DNA of 64,000 nt, from positions 1 to 64,000 of IMG/VR virus record IMGVR_UViG_3300045988_093856; one strand, written 5' to 3'. Source of the DNA: a virus. The translations under genes were made by a program, and so were the position numbers. The notes below the pieces were generated by a model that ran no database searches, was not told the origin of the DNA, and saw nothing but the letters and a program-made list of their open reading frames with translations. Shown here one piece after another: positions 1 through 53,335 of this stretch (the stretch's first letter is position 1; each line of letters begins with the position of its first letter).

Positions 1-1600
1 GTGTTCCTGTAGACCACCCCACACCATTGGATTATCATGCTGCACGTTGCGTTCCACCCCCCCCCCTCAACCTTTTCTACACGGCAGATTCCCATGCTCT
101 GTGAGGTAATTGTGGGGCAAATATTACCGCCTCCCTGTACTCTCCCACGCCTTAATTCACTTGTGGGATAGGAGAAGTCGGCAACACCGCCAATTTCGCA
201 CTCTATGTACCCCTTATGGGTTGCTTGCCGTATTCCAACCATTTCTTTATCCATTTCTATATTTCCTTATCTCCAAAACTAAATTATCTTTTTGAACCGT
301 TGTGAGAGTATTTGATATTCCATCTGTCCTAGCCTCCAGCTTCGTCATATTGCCACGTTTCTCTTGGATAGCATGATTCTCATATAGTTTTCTGATTTGT
401 TTTCCGTATTCAGTTCTCACACATCGGCATATCGCAAATTCCTTATCCATTATTAGTCCTGATTTCCAAAACGTAATTATCTTTCTGTACGGAGGTAAGT
501 GTATTGCAGATTCCCTCAGAGTTCGGTTCTAACCTTTGTTCCGTAGGACTTCCGGCAGTTCTATCGGAGGGATTTGTAGGGTTTCTTCCCCTCGAAGCTA
601 CAATTATTTTCTCAATCACTCTTTTATCTCCACATCCATCTATTGTTCTTAAAGTCCCGCAACATCCATCCTTAAAAAATCGTATTCCTTCGTCTGATCT
701 TTCTTCACAGACAATGCGGTTTATTATTTGAGTGCCAATACCCCCCCCCGCACTGGTTTGCAGAGAGGATATTGCATAAATCTTTATCCTGATTTTGCAA
801 TATTATTTCCCTTTCCTCTGGTATTGACTATGATACAAGGTACAGTACCCCCCCACTCGTAATCGCCGGAGCAACCCCTTTGGTATCATATACCCTACCC
901 TGATTTGGATTGTCTCTCGTGGAAGTGGGGAGAATATTGCCTAACCTCTTTATTCCGGTCTGCAATATCTTTCTTCCTTTCCTTGGTTTCTAATATCTTT
1001 GGTTCTCTATTCCCCCCCCGCACGTATTCAGAGTTGGTGCAAGTCCATCTACTGAATACACTCTCCCGGCTTGGGGGTTGTCCCAATTCTTTCCTGCCAC
1101 AATATTTCCTAACTGTATGCAGCTTATTTTATTTGCCATATTACATTTCCTCTACCACATATTTGTTGTGCTTATAATCGCTCGCCAACAACGTAGGGCA
1201 AATCATTTTGTAGAGTGCTTTGTTGTAGGGGTCGTATATTCCACAAGCACTTTCGGAGGGTCTTTGTAATCCGTTGCCCTTATTGCTTGGCAAATACCCC
1301 CCCCGAGAGAACTCGGACTCTGTCCTGGACTTCCTTTTCTGGGTTCAGAGAGCCGATCACAATAATCTTGTCTGCCATCCATTCTGTCCTCCACTAATAC
1401 TTTTGGCGGGTCCTTGTAATCTGTGGCTGATAGAGATATTGATATTCCATCAGGGGACATTATGCGTCCTCTTTCTCCACCGGTTCCCGTATGAGCCACT
1501 ATTATAGGCCGGCTCATTGGGAATCCGGGCTATCTAATTCGTCAGAACCGCATCCCAATGATGCCTGTCTATCGAGCCTCTGCCCCCCCCCCCGAACCGT
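1..1600 (-). other. Array of >=9 tandem C5-methyltransferase TRD-like modules downstream of the catalytic core. It is spread over all three minus-strand frames and runs off the window at position 1.
   Basis: Hand translation of the minus strand gives these repeated TRD-type peptides: TVRGGG(R)GSIDRHHWD (~1540-1600); RIMSPDGISISLSATDYKDPPKVLVE (~1390-1470); RVRVLSGGGICQAIRATDYKDPPKVLVE (~1235-1320); IYDPYNKALYKMICPTLLASDYKHNKYVVEE (~1140-1235); QAGRVYSVDGLAPTLNTCGGGNREPKILE (~988-1080); NQGRVYDTKGVAPAITSGGG (~845-905); KIYAISSLQTSAGGGIGTQII (~723-788); IRFFKDGCCGTLRTIDGCGDKRVIE (~612-686); RGRNPTNPSDRTAGSPTEQRLEPNSEGICNTLTSVQKDNYVLE (~455-600); RTEYGKQIRKLYE...LEARTDGISNTLTTVQKDNLVLE (247-450); FSYPTSELRRGRVQGGGNICPTITS (~100-176). 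No motif IX/X (GN[AS]V) was seen, so the gene probably continues left of the window. Confidence 0.6.
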
Positions 1601-2512
1601 CTTAGACACCTTATCTAACTGTCCGCTTTCCCGGAGGTCTTTGATAAGTTGCTGTGCCTTTTCAGAGTTAATGTAATACTTCTCGTCAACTTCATCCTCC
1701 AAATAATCTTTCATGGTTTTATCAAGAGGTATCGGCTGAGGAAACTTAAAGTTGTAATCTCCGAGGATTGATACCATAAAACAACGCTCCCGGTTCTGTG
1801 CCACTCCGTAATCCTTTGCGTTGAGAATTTGTGTATAACACTTATATCCCTTTCCTCTCAAAAAGTCGCACCAACTATGGAAATCATCTATGTTTTCCGG
1901 GCTTACTACTTGTGGTACATTCTCCATGAGAAGTATTTGAGGGAGGCTTTCTGTTTCATTCAGAAGCCTTTCGACTTCCCACAACAAACCGGAACGTGTA
2001 CCAGACCCTTTTTTCATTCCTTTCATCTTTCCGGCTAACGATAAGTCTTGACAAGGGAATGAGTAAGTAAGTATGTAAGTAAACTTATCTGTTTCAACAA
2101 TCCCTAAATCCGATCCTTTGGCGGCCATAATATTGACGAGGTTGTGTGTGGATTTTATATTGTTGTAGCACTCTCTGCGCCATAGTTCTCCGTAAGAATT
2201 GCTTGCGATCTGTTTCCTTGTAAGAGGATTTTTCCCATCTACGGATATTCCCAAATTTGAGAGAATGTCGATCAGCTGCTCGTCCGTCAGGCCTGCGCTA
2301 TAATCCGTATTATCGTTTTCCATGTGAATTTGCTTATAAGATGCTGTCGCGTGTGTTTCCCATTCGCAAATAAGATAATGTTCAAACGGCACTCCCAACA
2401 CTTTCAAAGCCATCGCCTGGCTTCCGACTCCGGCAAATAATTCTATTAGTCGAACCGGGGAATTTACTTTATACGTTGGGTACATCAAATCAAACATTGT
2501 AATCTGATCCAC
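1514..2512 (-). CDS. dcm: DNA (cytosine-5)-methyltransferase, catalytic N-terminal part (motifs I-VIII). The ORF stops just after an 11-nt G-run.
   Basis: Motif I LFAGVGS, motif IV SFPCQDLS, motif VI LMENVPQ and motif VIII QNRERCFMVS. A reading with one G fewer in the run at 1583-1593 gives RGGGRGSIDRHHWDAVLTN*. Confidence 0.9.
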   Translation of the reverse strand: MDQITMFDLMYPTYKVNSPVRLIELFAGVGSQAMALKVLGVPFEHYLICEWETHATASYKQIHMENDNTDYSAGLTDEQLIDILSNLGISVDGKNPLTRKQIASNSYGELWRRECYNNIKSTHNLVNIMAAKGSDLGIVETDKFTYILTYSFPCQDLSLAGKMKGMKKGSGTRSGLLWEVERLLNETESLPQILLMENVPQVVSPENIDDFHSWCDFLRGKGYKCYTQILNAKDYGVAQNRERCFMVSILGDYNFKFPQPIPLDKTMKDYLEDEVDEKYYINSEKAQQLIKDLRESGQLDKVSKTVRGGGQRLDRQASLGCGSDELDSPDSQ

Positions 2513-2527: not shown

Positions 2528-3052
2528 TTAGTTATTTCTGAAAACTGCATTGTTTTGTTGCCTGATATATATTCTCCGCTCCAGTGTTTTTTCAGAAGCG
2601 TTCGCATACTCCAAATTCTTTATGCTTGTTTCCTTGCATTTCTCGCATAATTTTCCACTTTCGATATGTATTCCGCAGCGATAACATCTGCCATACATAG
2701 GTCTTTCGGAGCGATCCATTCCATCCTTGCGTCTCTCATTCTTCCTTTGGTTTTTGATTCTGCAATCAATACACATACATGAAGAATTGATACTTTGAGG
2801 CTTCCCGCAGTAAATACAAAGTCCAGACGCTTTTCGCTGTTCCCTTAATTTTTTTATGTATGTTCGGTGTTCTCTGCGAATACTCTCTGTTTGCTGTTGA
2901 GATTGCTTTTCTCTTTGTTTACGCGAGCTTTCTGCATTTTTAGCAAGACATTCTTCACATCTTACTTTTCCTGGGGCGGCTTTATTCGTTCCGCACTGCG
3001 GACATATCCCCATTTCCTTGTACCACTGATAAAGTTCCTGATGCTCTTTCAT
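2528..3052 (-). CDS. Multi-CxxC zinc-ribbon protein, function unknown
   Basis: 174-aa ORF with at least 5 CxxC pairs and a basic linker; packed between neighbouring genes. Confidence 0.6.
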   Translation of the reverse strand: MKEHQELYQWYKEMGICPQCGTNKAAPGKVRCEECLAKNAESSRKQREKQSQQQTESIRREHRTYIKKLREQRKASGLCIYCGKPQSINSSCMCIDCRIKNQRKNERRKDGMDRSERPMYGRCYRCGIHIESGKLCEKCKETSIKNLEYANASEKTLERRIYIRQQNNAVFRNN

Positions 3053-6663: not shown

Positions 6664-6975
6664 TCAAATGTAGAATTTTTTGTATCTGTCAAAGAACTTC
6701 TTCCGTGCTTCTTCCACGGTCAGTCCATGCGATACCTCATTTTGAATGTACGCAAACTGAGCTACCATTTTACACCACTTTGCGATAGTAGGATTGAGAT
6801 GAACCGACTCCTTACTATCCATATTATGATGTTTGGGGCAGAGAGGAATTGTAAGGTTATCCTCATCTGCCAACTTTCTGCCGGATGTTCCGCTGATTGC
6901 GTGGTGCATAACCACATTGGGGTTGCCACATATCAAACAATGTTCTGTGTCTGTTGTAATAATGCTGTCAAACAT
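6664..6975 (-). CDS. HNH-like zinc-binding protein
   Basis: CLICG...HH...CPKHHN pattern (CxxC ... CxxHH). Confidence 0.5.
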   Translation of the reverse strand: MFDSIITTDTEHCLICGNPNVVMHHAISGTSGRKLADEDNLTIPLCPKHHNMDSKESVHLNPTIAKWCKMVAQFAYIQNEVSHGLTVEEARKKFFDRYKKFYI

Positions 6976-7495
6976 TGACTATATATCCTCCAACTTCAAA
7001 ACTATTTCCATGCTTTTTCTTCTGCTTGCATAAATACTGTCTCTTATGATTAAGAAATAGCGAACCCTCTTTCAGTGAAGAAAAATGTAATTCTTCGCCT
7101 GTATTTTTATCTGTTAGGACACAAGCAATGCTTTGGTATTGGTCGTTTCGTAAACCTGTCTTAATGGCGTGTTGTATGTTTTCCACGTAATTGCACCATT
7201 CGAGATTTTCAACAGAATTATTTGTTTTATCTCCATCTATATGGTTTACTTGCGGTTTCCCATCTACCTTTGGAATGAACGCCTCGGCAACAATCCTGTG
7301 TACTTTTATCGTCTTTTGCACTCCATGGGAACGGAGACCAACAACAAGGTACCCGTATCTGTCATGTTGCGGACGCATTATCATTTCCTCAAACCAGATT
7401 ACCCCATGATATTTAGCGAGGGCTTTGACCCTACCGGTATTACTAACTTCGTAACTGCCCTCATATCCGACAACAGGTCTCCATTCCTCTCTCAT
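6968..7495 (-). CDS. NUMOD4/HNH homing-type endonuclease
   Basis: N-terminal EEWRPVVGYEGSYEVSNTGRVK (NUMOD4) and VNHIDGDKTNNSVENLEW (HNH). Confidence 0.85.
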   Translation of the reverse strand: MREEWRPVVGYEGSYEVSNTGRVKALAKYHGVIWFEEMIMRPQHDRYGYLVVGLRSHGVQKTIKVHRIVAEAFIPKVDGKPQVNHIDGDKTNNSVENLEWCNYVENIQHAIKTGLRNDQYQSIACVLTDKNTGEELHFSSLKEGSLFLNHKRQYLCKQKKKHGNSFEVGGYIVNV

Positions 7496-9151: not shown

Positions 9152-9585
9152 TTATTTATTTTGTGTCTGCCTGACACGCATCACTACGGCAGGCAGACTA
9201 TTTATCATATCAGGGGTTATCGTTTTGCCCCCCCCGAAAAGGCTTCTCATAAACTCTGCAAATCCGTCTGCGTCCGGGTGTGTGCCGGTTTTCACGACTT
9301 CAAATCCGAACTTCTTCTTTGCCAGTTCACAGAATTTGGTTGTCTGCTCTTTCATAATGGGTTCAATGAGGCTGCTTGTTTCTCTGAACCATTCTTCTCC
9401 GCCCTCAATATCTTTGAGAAATCTCTTATTGCCCTCTACGTGGCATGATATTGAAGTCGGAGCAACTGTTACCTCTACCTTGAATGGATAAGTTCCGGGG
9501 CTGCCTTATCTCCGATAATACTTTTCAGGAGCATTGCTGCCATAAGAGCATCGAAGTCTTTTTCAAAATTATCTTTATCTGCCAT
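9152..9585 (-). pseudogene. Hypothetical gene split by an apparent 1-nt frameshift
   Basis: ATG at 9585 with GGAGGA upstream gives MADKDNFEKDFDALMAAMLLKSIIGDKAAPELIHSR*. The next frame is open from that point (..YPFKVEVTVAPTSISCHVEGNKRF...) into listed ORF 9152-9355. One extra base in CCCCGG (~9496-9501) would fuse them. Confidence 0.5.
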
Positions 9586-11056: not shown

Positions 11057-11560
11057 CTATTTGCCGTGTTCTACTTCCAACTCTGCCGCCCTCTCAGATA
11101 CTTCAATCGCATAATCTGAATAATCTCCGCTTTCCCACCGACTATTTGCCGTTGAGGTTTTGAGATTATAACGCATGAGGACATAATAGAGATCATCCCC
11201 TCTGCCGCTTTGAATGGCTTCGTCAAAGAGTTCTGCCAGATAATCAGTCCCAACAAGAATATTGGAATACGAATCATACAAATTTGTTACTTCGAGTTCT
11301 TCCATCCTGTCGGCGTGCCACCTTTGGCTGACTTGCATAAGCCCTATGCAATTTCCATTTTTGGCGTATGGGTCGTAACTGCTTTCCCTCTCGATTATTG
11401 CCTGAATAAGCTCCGGGCAGATATTGTACTTTTCTCCGATTTCAACGGTGTATGCCTCAATATCGCTACGAGGGGGGGTGTTTTTAGTTTGTGCGCTTGT
11501 ACTTATTACCGGAATGAAGAACATAACGGAAATAAGGAGTATTGATAATTTGCGTTTCAT
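11057..11560 (-). CDS. Secreted lytic transglycosylase (SLT domain)
   Basis: Signal-peptide-like MKRKLSILLISVMFFIPVISTSA and the catalytic pattern IIERESSYDPYA...GLMQV. Confidence 0.75.
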   Translation of the reverse strand: MKRKLSILLISVMFFIPVISTSAQTKNTPPRSDIEAYTVEIGEKYNICPELIQAIIERESSYDPYAKNGNCIGLMQVSQRWHADRMEELEVTNLYDSYSNILVGTDYLAELFDEAIQSGRGDDLYYVLMRYNLKTSTANSRWESGDYSDYAIEVSERAAELEVEHGK

Positions 11561-52747: not shown

Positions 52748-53335
52748 TTATTTACCCCCCCCCACAGTGAGAAGATCGTCATAGATTGCCTTGATTACCT
52801 CGGCATCGTACAATGCGTTGTGTTTCTGACCTTTCGGCAAAGAAATTCCTCTATTTGTCAGCAATTCCTCTCTCGAAAAGTCAAAAGCCTCTGCCTCTGA
52901 TATATCCAACACCATTGCAATGTCCTGGGTAATATCATGGCAAAACGGATTGATATAATCCGGCAGCAACACCGCTCCGTCCGCAAGCAGATCACACAGT
53001 AGAACCATATCGTAGTGACATACATCGGACACAAACTGAATATCATCCTTGAAGTTATCGAGCCATTCGAGCAATTCCACTCTCACATCGTTTTTGCTTC
53101 CAAGAACAACCGTTGTCATGCCGTCCTCTCCAAGCGTTTTTGCAAGTTCCTCATTCCCACTCAGGATCAGATGGTCGAGTACATTCTTCTCAATCCATTC
53201 GTCACACTGCGTATCATCAAAATCCGTCAGCTCTGCGTAGAAGCGTTCCCCCTCGTCTGAGATAAAACCGATACTAACAAGGGTTGTCCCTTTGTGGAGC
53301 CCGGTAAATTCTGTGCCAAAGAATATTCGTCTCAT
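52748..53335 (-). CDS. DEDD-type 3'-5' exonuclease
   Basis: FFGTEFTGL (Exo I) and HNALYDAEV (Exo III, DEDDh). Confidence 0.7.
   Translation of the reverse strand: MRRIFFGTEFTGLHKGTTLVSIGFISDEGERFYAELTDFDDTQCDEWIEKNVLDHLILSGNEELAKTLGEDGMTTVVLGSKNDVRVELLEWLDNFKDDIQFVSDVCHYDMVLLCDLLADGAVLLPDYINPFCHDITQDIAMVLDISEAEAFDFSREELLTNRGISLPKGQKHNALYDAEVIKAIYDDLLTVGGGK

Follow-up and report, generated by a model that had tools for sequence, protein, structure and literature searches.

Multispecific cytosine-5 DNA methyltransferases (C5-MTases) of phages, such as M.SPRI, M.Phi3TI, M.Rho11sI, M.H2I, and M.(phi)BssHII, are single polypeptides that carry two to five target recognition domains (TRDs) and no simple-sequence repeats, and each TRD is presumed to recognize one target. 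References to these enzymes appear in PMC8936443 and PMC12707154. Other C5-MTases are made of two pieces: M.AquI is split into alpha and beta in the variable region, and the beta subunit of M.EcoHK31I is encoded in another frame. The genes orf13 and orf14 of Streptococcus phage MM1 are likewise annotated as a two-subunit C5-MTase. In addition, the phasevarions of Haemophilus, Neisseria, Helicobacter, and Campylobacter involve Type III mod, Type I hsdS/hsdM, and Type IIG genes. The DNA analyzed here is a window of 64,000 nucleotides (positions 1 to 64,000 of the IMG/VR virus record IMGVR_UViG_3300045988_093856), which carries at its left end, on the minus strand, a C5-MTase gene followed by an array of TRD-like modules. 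We think it probable that this locus is an obligately split, multicistronic, multi-TRD C5-MTase, in which slippage-prone switches in six modules would give a combinatorial, phase-variable specificity.

Like the multispecific phage enzymes, the locus is phage-borne and has C5 core motifs I to VIII, motifs IX and X lying beyond the window in near-identical contigs, with tandem short TRDs between motifs VIII and IX, and its modules are homologues of the TRD regions of such enzymes; unlike them, it has 14 modules in approximately nine cistrons and three frames, six poly-G switches, and a core that never shares an open reading frame (ORF) with motif IX. As in M.AquI and M.EcoHK31I, motifs I to VIII and motifs IX and X lie on separate overlapping or adjacent frames, and the assembly of the parts is presumed to be noncovalent, whereas those enzymes consist of two pieces with one specificity and no switching and lack the additional TRD-only cistrons and hypermutable tracts present here. 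As in phasevarions, a repeat within the coding sequence slips and shifts the frame, and tract lengths are polymorphic among near-identical genomes; in contrast to phasevarions, which are chromosomal N6-adenine systems with one tract turning a whole enzyme on or off, this is a phage C5 system with six independent tracts acting at the level of modules, some of them as three-way selectors. The locus would also resemble the Type I hsdS shufflons (pneumococcal SpnD39III/ivr, Mycoplasma, and Bacteroides) in obtaining alternative specificities by TRD reassortment. Shufflons use a site-specific recombinase and inverted repeats, whereas positions 1 to 1650 contain 0 inverted repeats and the switch here would be slippage, and an invertase or shufflon mechanism was therefore rejected. 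We know of no exchangeable specificity subunits for C5-MTases and of no phase-variable phage methylome with multiple switches, and a full-text literature search covering phase variation, homopolymers, multispecific and split C5-MTases, and phages found no such locus described.

The catalytic core is encoded in an ORF of 332 amino acids (cistron A, or alpha; Table 1), which matches PF00145 in a profile search (E = 6.6e-46) and contains ELFAGVGSQ (motif I), SFPCQDLS (motif IV), MENVPQ (motif VI), and AQNRERCF (motif VIII, QxRxR) in that order, in agreement with the preliminary description of this DNA, which had placed a C5-MTase core with motifs I to VIII at 1514 to 2512. The alpha cistron starts with a GTG at 2512, ahead of which is an AGGAG sequence, and terminates at 1514 to 1570 whichever frame is used. 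At the 11 G of the window, its tail is out of frame, and its TGA (1516 to 1514) overlaps the ATG of cistron B (ATGA). Relative to Dulem virus 39 and contig L017, the core also has an insertion of about 55 amino acids between motifs I and IV (window ~2170 to 2340, minus strand; ..NDNTDYSAGLTDEQLIDILSNLGISVDGKNPLTRKQIASNSYGELWRRECYNNIK..), which is common to contig L014.

The window contains 11 to 12 TRD-like modules (M1 to M11/12), and the complete locus of approximately 3.1 kb contains 14. The preliminary description had counted at least nine such segments and had quoted several peptides from them, all of which are present in the window translations. The peptide ATDYKDPPKVLVE is present twice (~1424 to 1386 and ~1277 to 1239), as is NTLT(S/T)VQKDN(Y/L)VLE, and modules of the form RVY..G.APT(L/I)...GGG also occur. 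The modules are homologous to the motif VIII-IX region of single-chain multi-TRD enzymes, with tblastn E values down to 1e-25. The intact single-chain relatives are those of Dulem virus 39 (528 amino acids), L014 (516 amino acids), and L017 (667 amino acids), which align with M5, M6, and M8 to M11 across their motif VIII-IX region; the M5 part in cistron D is 61% identical to the TRD of L014, and the segment from the C-part of M7 (M7C) to M9 is 67% identical to the TRD region of Dulem virus 39. The concatenated modules match C5-MTases in 81 phage records, mostly of Streptococcus, Bacillus, and Lactobacillus phages, and a DNA-level search of a phage collection returned a single distant match, Dulem virus 39, whose 528-amino-acid MTase has no G run of at least 7. 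The isolated small ORFs gave no meaningful matches in a Pfam search because PF00145 does not model TRDs. Module M10 has homologues in about 50 clusters, nearly all of them ORFs of 52 to 115 amino acids, and an M10-like sequence stands directly ahead of motif IX in a C. botulinum protein; its AlphaFold2 model (pLDDT 81.8) has a strand-helix-strand-strand arrangement. Tandem Repeats Finder detected no relevant tandem repeat at the DNA level in the array, where the sole direct repeat is 61 nt long with 75% identity, and an origin by tandem DNA duplication was thus ruled out. Between the two DNA copies of ATDYKDPPKVLVE there are 9 differences in 39 bases, every one of them synonymous. The earlier statement that the array is neither a recent duplication nor an assembly stutter holds.

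The 67-amino-acid M10 ORF (247 to 450) is found unchanged in other assemblies, and four of the contigs that have it, L095 to L098, extend the locus to the left and gave the position of motifs IX and X, which had been noted as lying outside the window. These four contigs come from Logan assemblies, each of a different SRA run; over the array, their identity with the window is ~96%, and the alignment runs on past window position 1. Both motifs lie 0.4 to 0.55 kb beyond the edge. The off-window part of the beta cistron in these contigs contains M12, M13, M14, motif IX (RIRKLTPIECWRLMDF; RIRKLTP), and motif X (AGNSIV), and the beta ORF of 206 to 240 amino acids is PF00145 positive and separate from the core ORF. 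When the six poly-G tracts described below were varied in silico over all 729 frame combinations, motif IV/VIII and motif IX shared an open frame in 0 of 729, and the same was true of 0 of 57 natural arrays. A single ORF at some tract-length combination was thereby rejected: alpha, with the core and M1, and beta, with TRDs and motifs IX and X, are obligately separate parts of the enzyme. The comparison made earlier with single-polypeptide enzymes of the SPR type does not survive this result, and a side remark in the same description, that stand-alone TRD subunits or alternative C termini are conceivable, proves the better reading. Because approximately seven further TRD-only cistrons stand between alpha and beta, the locus also exceeds a two-subunit layout.

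In addition to the poly-G tracts, fixed junctions change the frame without any homopolymer, seven of eight of them by +1 shifts. At these junctions, the old frame ends at a stop codon only a few bases from an ATG or TTG that opens the new one (ATGA, ATGGATAA, TAATATG, and similar sequences), and most have a Shine-Dalgarno (SD)-like sequence upstream of the start. The ribosome-binding sites claimed earlier are among them, namely, GGAGGA-N8-ATG for MADKIIVIG (ATG 1378) and GAGGA-N8-ATG for MANKISCIQLGN (ATG 1139). The junction starts are kept, at a constant distance, in every array scored (37/37 to 58/58): the ATG is conserved in 55/55 arrays for cistron B, 37/37 for cistron G, and 54/54 for cistron H, the ATG and SD of cistron C are kept in 58/58, and the TTG and SD of cistron E are kept in 54/54. 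In different lineages, the overlap of stop codon and ATG is built from different sequences. A very unlikely reading of these junctions is recoding, in which +1 shifts at the junctions and slippage on the G runs would produce one giant polypeptide that includes everything from the core through ~14 TRDs to motif X. The +1 direction of seven of the eight fixed junctions, at or next to a stop codon, and the known slipperiness of G runs for Gly-tRNA would suit it, as would the fact that some relatives keep, at motif IV, an insertion of 8 nt that contains an in-frame TAA, with both halves of the core under purifying selection, which suggests that this lineage may tolerate or decode breaks. Frameshifting would not need the new-frame ATG or TTG, usually SD-like in its upstream sequence, that is found at every junction in all arrays; moreover, the P-site codons ahead of the stops (GGA, GAT, ATG, and CTA) cannot re-pair in the +1 frame, the need for at least eight inefficient events in a row would bring the yield of full-length product close to nil, and beyond tract 1, all three frames stop within ~70 nt, ahead of tract 2.

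Selection was measured as the ratio of nonsynonymous to synonymous differences (pN/pS) by the Nei-Gojobori method, per module frame, between the window and contigs L007, L013, L028, and L036, at pS values of 0.5 to 0.9. The core gave 0.17 to 0.18. In their own frames, M2 gave 0.09 to 0.17, the N-part of M3 (M3N) gave 0.07 to 0.11, M4 gave 0.07 to 0.11, M5N gave 0.12 to 0.40, M6N gave 0.07 to 0.16 (0.02 to 0.16 over all comparisons), M7C to M9 gave 0.13 to 0.23, M10 gave 0.15, and M11 gave 0.11 to 0.16, while M3C gave 0 (0.00 to 0.03 over all comparisons, with 11 synonymous versus 1 nonsynonymous differences against L002). Values in the other two frames were mostly >1. For most modules, own-frame purifying selection is strong, as it is for the core; the array is therefore translated one module at a time, in three frames, and has been over a long divergence. 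The frame changes that the preliminary description had covered with the words "in one frame or another" are real, and they are not noise, consisting of poly-G tracts in six modules and conserved stop/start junctions.

The many frame breaks, the error-prone nature of homopolymers in some sequencing chemistries, and the nonintact state of the six switches in the window could instead be taken as signs of a decaying pseudogene or of a homopolymer sequencing or assembly artefact in an ordinary multispecific MTase gene, both of which are extremely improbable. The same frame layout recurs across many samples, in ~60 contigs that are independent of one another, and in one isolate genome, the array being a prophage in the cultured isolate Diplocloster hominis CSJ-3. 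Assembly or homopolymer error was rejected on the basis of this shared layout, the fixed junctions away from homopolymers, and the several near-identical contig pairs that share all tract lengths; the other long ORFs in the window are also intact. A pseudogene was rejected because most modules have an own-frame pN/pS of 0.07 to 0.25 and the layout is shared across lineages. The possibility that corrected reads would give an ordinary enzyme of ~450 amino acids is excluded by the conservation of the frame layout under purifying selection at pS 0.5 to 0.9.

The six poly-G runs of 7 to 11 G are on the coding strand, each on the Gly-Gly-Gly loop of one module. The 64-kb window has 23 matches to GGGGGGG, compared with 4.95 +/- 2.63 expected, and 17 of these 23 fall in positions 1 to 1600. 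GGG is the rarest Gly codon (11.8%) in 23 other window ORFs, and the single-chain relatives write the same Gly loops with mixed codons, e.g., GGT GGT GGT GGA. Because of this G7 excess in the array, the rarity of GGG elsewhere, and the mixed codons of the single-chain relatives, the homopolymers are taken as a derived, nonrandom trait. In the in silico product map, the effect of each tract is local. M1 is intact at 7, 10, or 13 G in tract 1. Tract 2 would act as a selector, with 9 or 12 G giving an intact M3 and joining M2 to M4, 8 or 11 G joining M2 to M3C, and 7 or 10 G joining M3N to M4. In the window, cistron B is fused to M3C (104 amino acids), cistron C is truncated at the tract 2 length, and cistron D is truncated as well. 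Ahead of M4 there is neither an ATG nor a GTG, and TTG codons sit between tract 2 and the module; translation presumably enters M4 by way of tract 2. Ahead of M9, a GTG at 619 (ORF 443 to 619) may serve as an internal start. Between tract and module, the frame has no stop in 52/52 arrays for M3C and 51/51 for M4 (both tract 2), 54/54 for M5C, 53/53 for M6C, and 46/46 for beta, and therefore, the fusions stay possible. The fusion of M11 to beta is realized in L095 as a 240-amino-acid ORF with a PF00145 match.

Table 1. Features of the C5-MTase locus in the window, from the core leftward. Lengths are numbers of G in the window (first) and in contigs L095 to L098; n is the number of G.
Feature	Position	Strand	Lengths	Description
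Cistron A (alpha)	1514..2512	minus		C5-MTase core, motifs I to VIII, then N-part of module M1
Poly-G tract 1	1583..1593	minus	11/7/8/9/9	11 G; Gly loop of M1 (KTVRGGG/RGSIDRHHWD)
M1 C-part	1537..1581	minus		RGSIDRHHWDAVLTN then stop; frame +1 (one base downstream) of the core's
Cistron B	1203..1517	minus		ATG at 1517; module M2 (..GRIMSPDGISISLSATDYKDPPKVLVE); frame open on to tract 2
Cistron C	1280..1378	minus		ATG at 1378 with GGAGGA-N8; M3 N-part (MADKIIVIGSLNPEKEVQDRVRVLS)
Poly-G tract 2	1297..1304	minus	8/10/8/9/10	8 G; putative three-way switch
M3 C-part	1239..1295	minus		ICQAIRATDYKDPPKVLVE
Module M4	1141..1239	minus		IYDPYNKALYKMICPTLLASDYKHNKYVVEEM then stop
Cistron D	990..1139	minus		ATG at 1139 with GAGGA-N8; M5 N-part (..GRVYSVDGLAPTLNTCGGG)
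Poly-G tract 3	1012..1019	minus	8/8/8/9/9	8 G; M5 intact at n = 9 or 12
M5 C-part	988..1011	minus		NREPKILE
Cistron E	828..965	minus		TTG at 965 after AAGGAAAGGAAG; M6 N-part (..QGRVYDTKGVAPAITSGG)
Poly-G tract 4	848..854	minus	7/8/9/8/8	7 G; M6 intact at n = 8 or 11
M6 C-part	787..846	minus		TVPCIIV...
Cistron F	705..800	minus		TTG at 800; M7 N-part (QNQDKDLCNILSANQCGGG)
Poly-G tract 5	741..749	minus	9/9/8/9/9	9 G; n = 8 or 11 joins M7N to M7C+M8+M9
M7 C-part + M8 + M9	443..739	minus		Single shared frame; M8 (..DGCCGTLRTIDGCGDKRVIE), M9 (KIIVASRGRNPTNPSDRTAGSPTEQRLEPNSEGICNTLTSVQKDNYVLE)
Cistron G	247..450	minus		Stand-alone 67-amino-acid TRD protein M10; ATG overlaps previous stop (ATGGATAA)
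Cistron H	67..254	minus		ATG at 254 (ATGGATAA overlap); module M11 (..GGVADFSYPTSELRRGRVQGGGNICPTITSQS..)
Poly-G tract 6	57..66	minus	10/9/8/7/7	10 G; n = 8 or 11 fuses M11 in frame to beta
Beta cistron, start of frame	1..55	minus		VERNVQHDNPMVWGGLQEH...; remainder left of the window

All six tracts vary in length among the window and the four contigs that are ~96% identical to it (Table 1). In ~45 IMG/VR arrays with identical flanks, the tracts range from 6 to 12 G and fill all three frame classes, with tract 1 having 6 to 10 G in 45 relatives and tract 2 having 7 to 12 G. Contigs L055 and L058 have 0 substitutions in 2,634 nt, yet four of their six tracts differ, and the share of differing tracts plateaus at ~0.63 below 1% divergence. 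The tracts are hypermutable. The near-identical pairs L060/L067 and L037/L041 have equal lengths at all tracts, and because several such pairs share every length, the lengths are heritable rather than random assembly noise. Every switch state occurs naturally, at roughly 15 to 40% each: M3 is intact in 20/58 arrays, M2 is joined to M3C in 22/55, M3N is joined to M4 in 13/57, M5 is intact in 19/55, M6 is intact in 8/52, and M11 is joined to beta in 13/52. Of the switches scored, none is intact in 15 arrays, one in 29, two in 11, and three in 3.

Several points weigh against a switchable multi-TRD enzyme. Each of the six tracts is nonintact or in an alternative state in the window, and the natural arrays show no enrichment of intact states beyond one third. 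Tract variation is known between assemblies and not within a clone, and assembly noise might account for part of it, although several near-identical pairs agree at every tract. For the short M1C, M5C, M6C, and M7N segments, the selection test gives an ambiguous signal; M7N has a pN/pS of ~0.56 in every frame and, with this weak selection signal, is the least certain of all the modules. To our knowledge, TRD-only peptides of 45 to 125 amino acids that work with a C5-MTase core have no precedent beyond the two-piece M.AquI and M.EcoHK31I. In addition, the M10 model had no structural match in the PDB by Foldseek (best E value, 0.99), a result that is uninformative on the TRD fold.

The middle of the array might also be unexpressed. 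If only alpha and beta formed the enzyme, using M1 and M11 to M14, the middle cistrons would be a silent store of cassettes for recombination or deletion. The length of the locus among relatives varies in steps of ~190 nt, corresponding to module gain or loss, an M10-like module is part of a longer beta ORF in L002, and beta has its own strong SD and ATG in relatives, all of which would be expected of such a store. Silent cassettes should show relaxed selection, whereas the middle modules have pN/pS values of 0.07 to 0.2, equal to or below that of the core, and the start codons and SD sequences of the middle cistrons are conserved; moreover, the repeated peptide motifs are diverged at synonymous sites, which disfavors homologous recombination, and positions 1 to 1650 lack inverted repeats, the neighboring genes not having been screened for a recombinase. 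We regard a silent store as unlikely.

A combinatorially switchable split enzyme would arise and work as follows. One long multispecific C5-MTase gene would have evolved into a translationally coupled operon, most of which is represented by window positions 1 to 2512 on the minus strand, with alpha (motifs I to VIII and M1), approximately seven TRD-only cistrons (M2 to M11), and beta (three TRDs and motifs IX and X). Slipped-strand mispairing during replication would alter the length of a tract, so that its module would be complete, cut short, or joined to another downstream half, and since each tract is fenced by stops and followed by a new start codon, the change would be confined to its own module. 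Tract 6 would attach M11 to beta or leave it free. Independent switching would be possible because the cistrons are separate; in a single chain, a frameshift would remove motifs IX and X and kill all specificities. Alpha and beta presumably assemble as in M.AquI, the TRD-only peptides may act noncovalently with them, and the tract states would then change the methylome. A bolder form of this proposal, to which we give somewhat less than an even chance, is that the TRD-only proteins (45 to 125 amino acids) are free specificity subunits that dock on an alpha/beta scaffold, each with a poly-G on/off or selector switch. With or without this bolder form, slippage would keep giving one phage lineage progeny that differ in their functional TRDs (up to 3^6 genotypes) and would differ in the cytosine motifs methylated, and the phage population probably carries many different DNA methylation repertoires. 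The Lachnospiraceae hosts have varied Type II restriction systems and methylation-dependent Type IV systems, and such progeny would be a form of bet-hedging against both.

Phage methyltransferases are a main means of escape from restriction, and overmethylation exposes a phage to methylation-dependent nucleases. Modules that flip independently would provide standing variation in protective methylation, a counterdefense analogue of bacterial contingency loci; on the bolder proposal of free specificity subunits, one phage genome would generate, combinatorially, hundreds of methylation repertoires that are heritable yet rapidly reversible. The C5-MTase architecture would be extended to many recognition modules on separate small proteins, and if the TRD-only proteins act in trans, this would be a new kind of C5-MTase organization. 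The family is common in human gut Lachnospiraceae phages, as judged from the ~60 contigs and the one cultured lysogen, D. hominis CSJ-3. Gene callers break such loci into "hypothetical" mini-ORFs, and the "correction" of homopolymers or "repair" of frameshifts would erase the signal.

Upstream of the MTase, the window encodes RecT, a PDDEXK nuclease, HNH endonucleases, RusA, a replisome organizer, and a G39P-like loader, and by gene content, this neighborhood is a phage early or replication module. The protein directly upstream of the MTase (174 amino acids; 2528 to 3052, minus strand) contains several repeats of a zinc-ribbon-like CxxC...CxxC unit and matches no Pfam family, and its gene is kept at the same position in L095 to L098. 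In the ~96%-identical contigs, the MTase locus is flanked by antidefense genes for Sequestin (PF21825), a Tad2-like protein (PF11195), and Gad2 (PF26128), as well as by genes for an OGG/HhH-GPD glycosylase and a peptide deformylase (flanking-gene coordinates, L095:287-541, L096:255-527, L096:9698-10414, and L096:7296-8156). The locus lies in a counterdefense neighborhood. These surroundings bear on whether the switchable MTase might instead be a prophage phasevarion, whose role in the lysogen would be to alter the expression of host genes or to keep other phages out, and not to protect phage DNA from restriction. In favor of such a role, D. hominis CSJ-3 has the element as a prophage, and bacterial phase-variable methyltransferases that control regulons are well known. 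Against it, this gene lies in an early replication and recombination module near antidefense genes, the usual place for phage self-protection MTases, and the known phasevarions are N6-adenine Type I or III enzymes with one switch. As a replacement for self-protection, such a role is quite unlikely; as an additional function, it is possible.

Further sequence features were observed in the core of some relatives. In ~47 of them, including the D. hominis isolate (L008-L011, L015, L028-L078, and L082; e.g., L036:6453-6470 and L082:5455), an insertion of 8 nt at catalytic motif IV reads TTTCC[ATAAGACC]TTGCCAG. It is not in the window, where positions 2048 to 2062 read tcattcccttgtcaa. The insertion leads to YSFP and then a stop, with PCQ in another frame, and no canonical start codon was found ahead of PCQ in this second frame in the insertion clade. 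Polymorphism in the clade amounts to 29 synonymous versus 2 nonsynonymous changes in one half of the core and 69 versus 12 in the other, for which recombination importing variation is an alternative explanation. The geometry of the insertion (CCA [Pro], TAA, 5 nt, CCT-TGC-CAG) would fit a short translational hop restoring F-P-C-Q, and the product of such a hop or bypass would span ...TYSFPCQDLSLAGK. The insertion clade also has an extra poly-G tract in the core, 60 nt upstream of motif IV (L082:5395; core position ~395), with 7 G in 39 arrays, 8 G in 6 arrays, and 9 G in 1 array; the window is without this tract.

More distant members of the family have other simple-sequence repeats at the boundary between the core and the TRDs (L018-L027, ~6700-6760; L002-L004, ~6960-6985; L017, ~6745-6775 and ~7090-7140). 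A 5-nt repeat reads RAEQSRAEQS in all frames, and its copy number and frame vary between contigs; the others are a (GA)n run, a 4-nt repeat (TDRQTDRQ), and an 8-nt repeat (ARKQESKK three times). Several of these relatives are also split into alpha and beta ORFs with an overlapping stop codon and ATG. Outside the locus, the window has further G/C runs of at least 7 at 52755 to 52763, 9228 to 9235, and 11472 to 11478. The 9-G run encodes the last glycines (..LLTVGGGK, stop) of an ORF without family assignment, just before the next ATG, and the 8-G run is in frame within a small ORF. In relatives, a MazF/PemK-like ORF has a 9-G run on GGG (L036:11047), and in these phages a few more genes may be switched by poly-G tracts.

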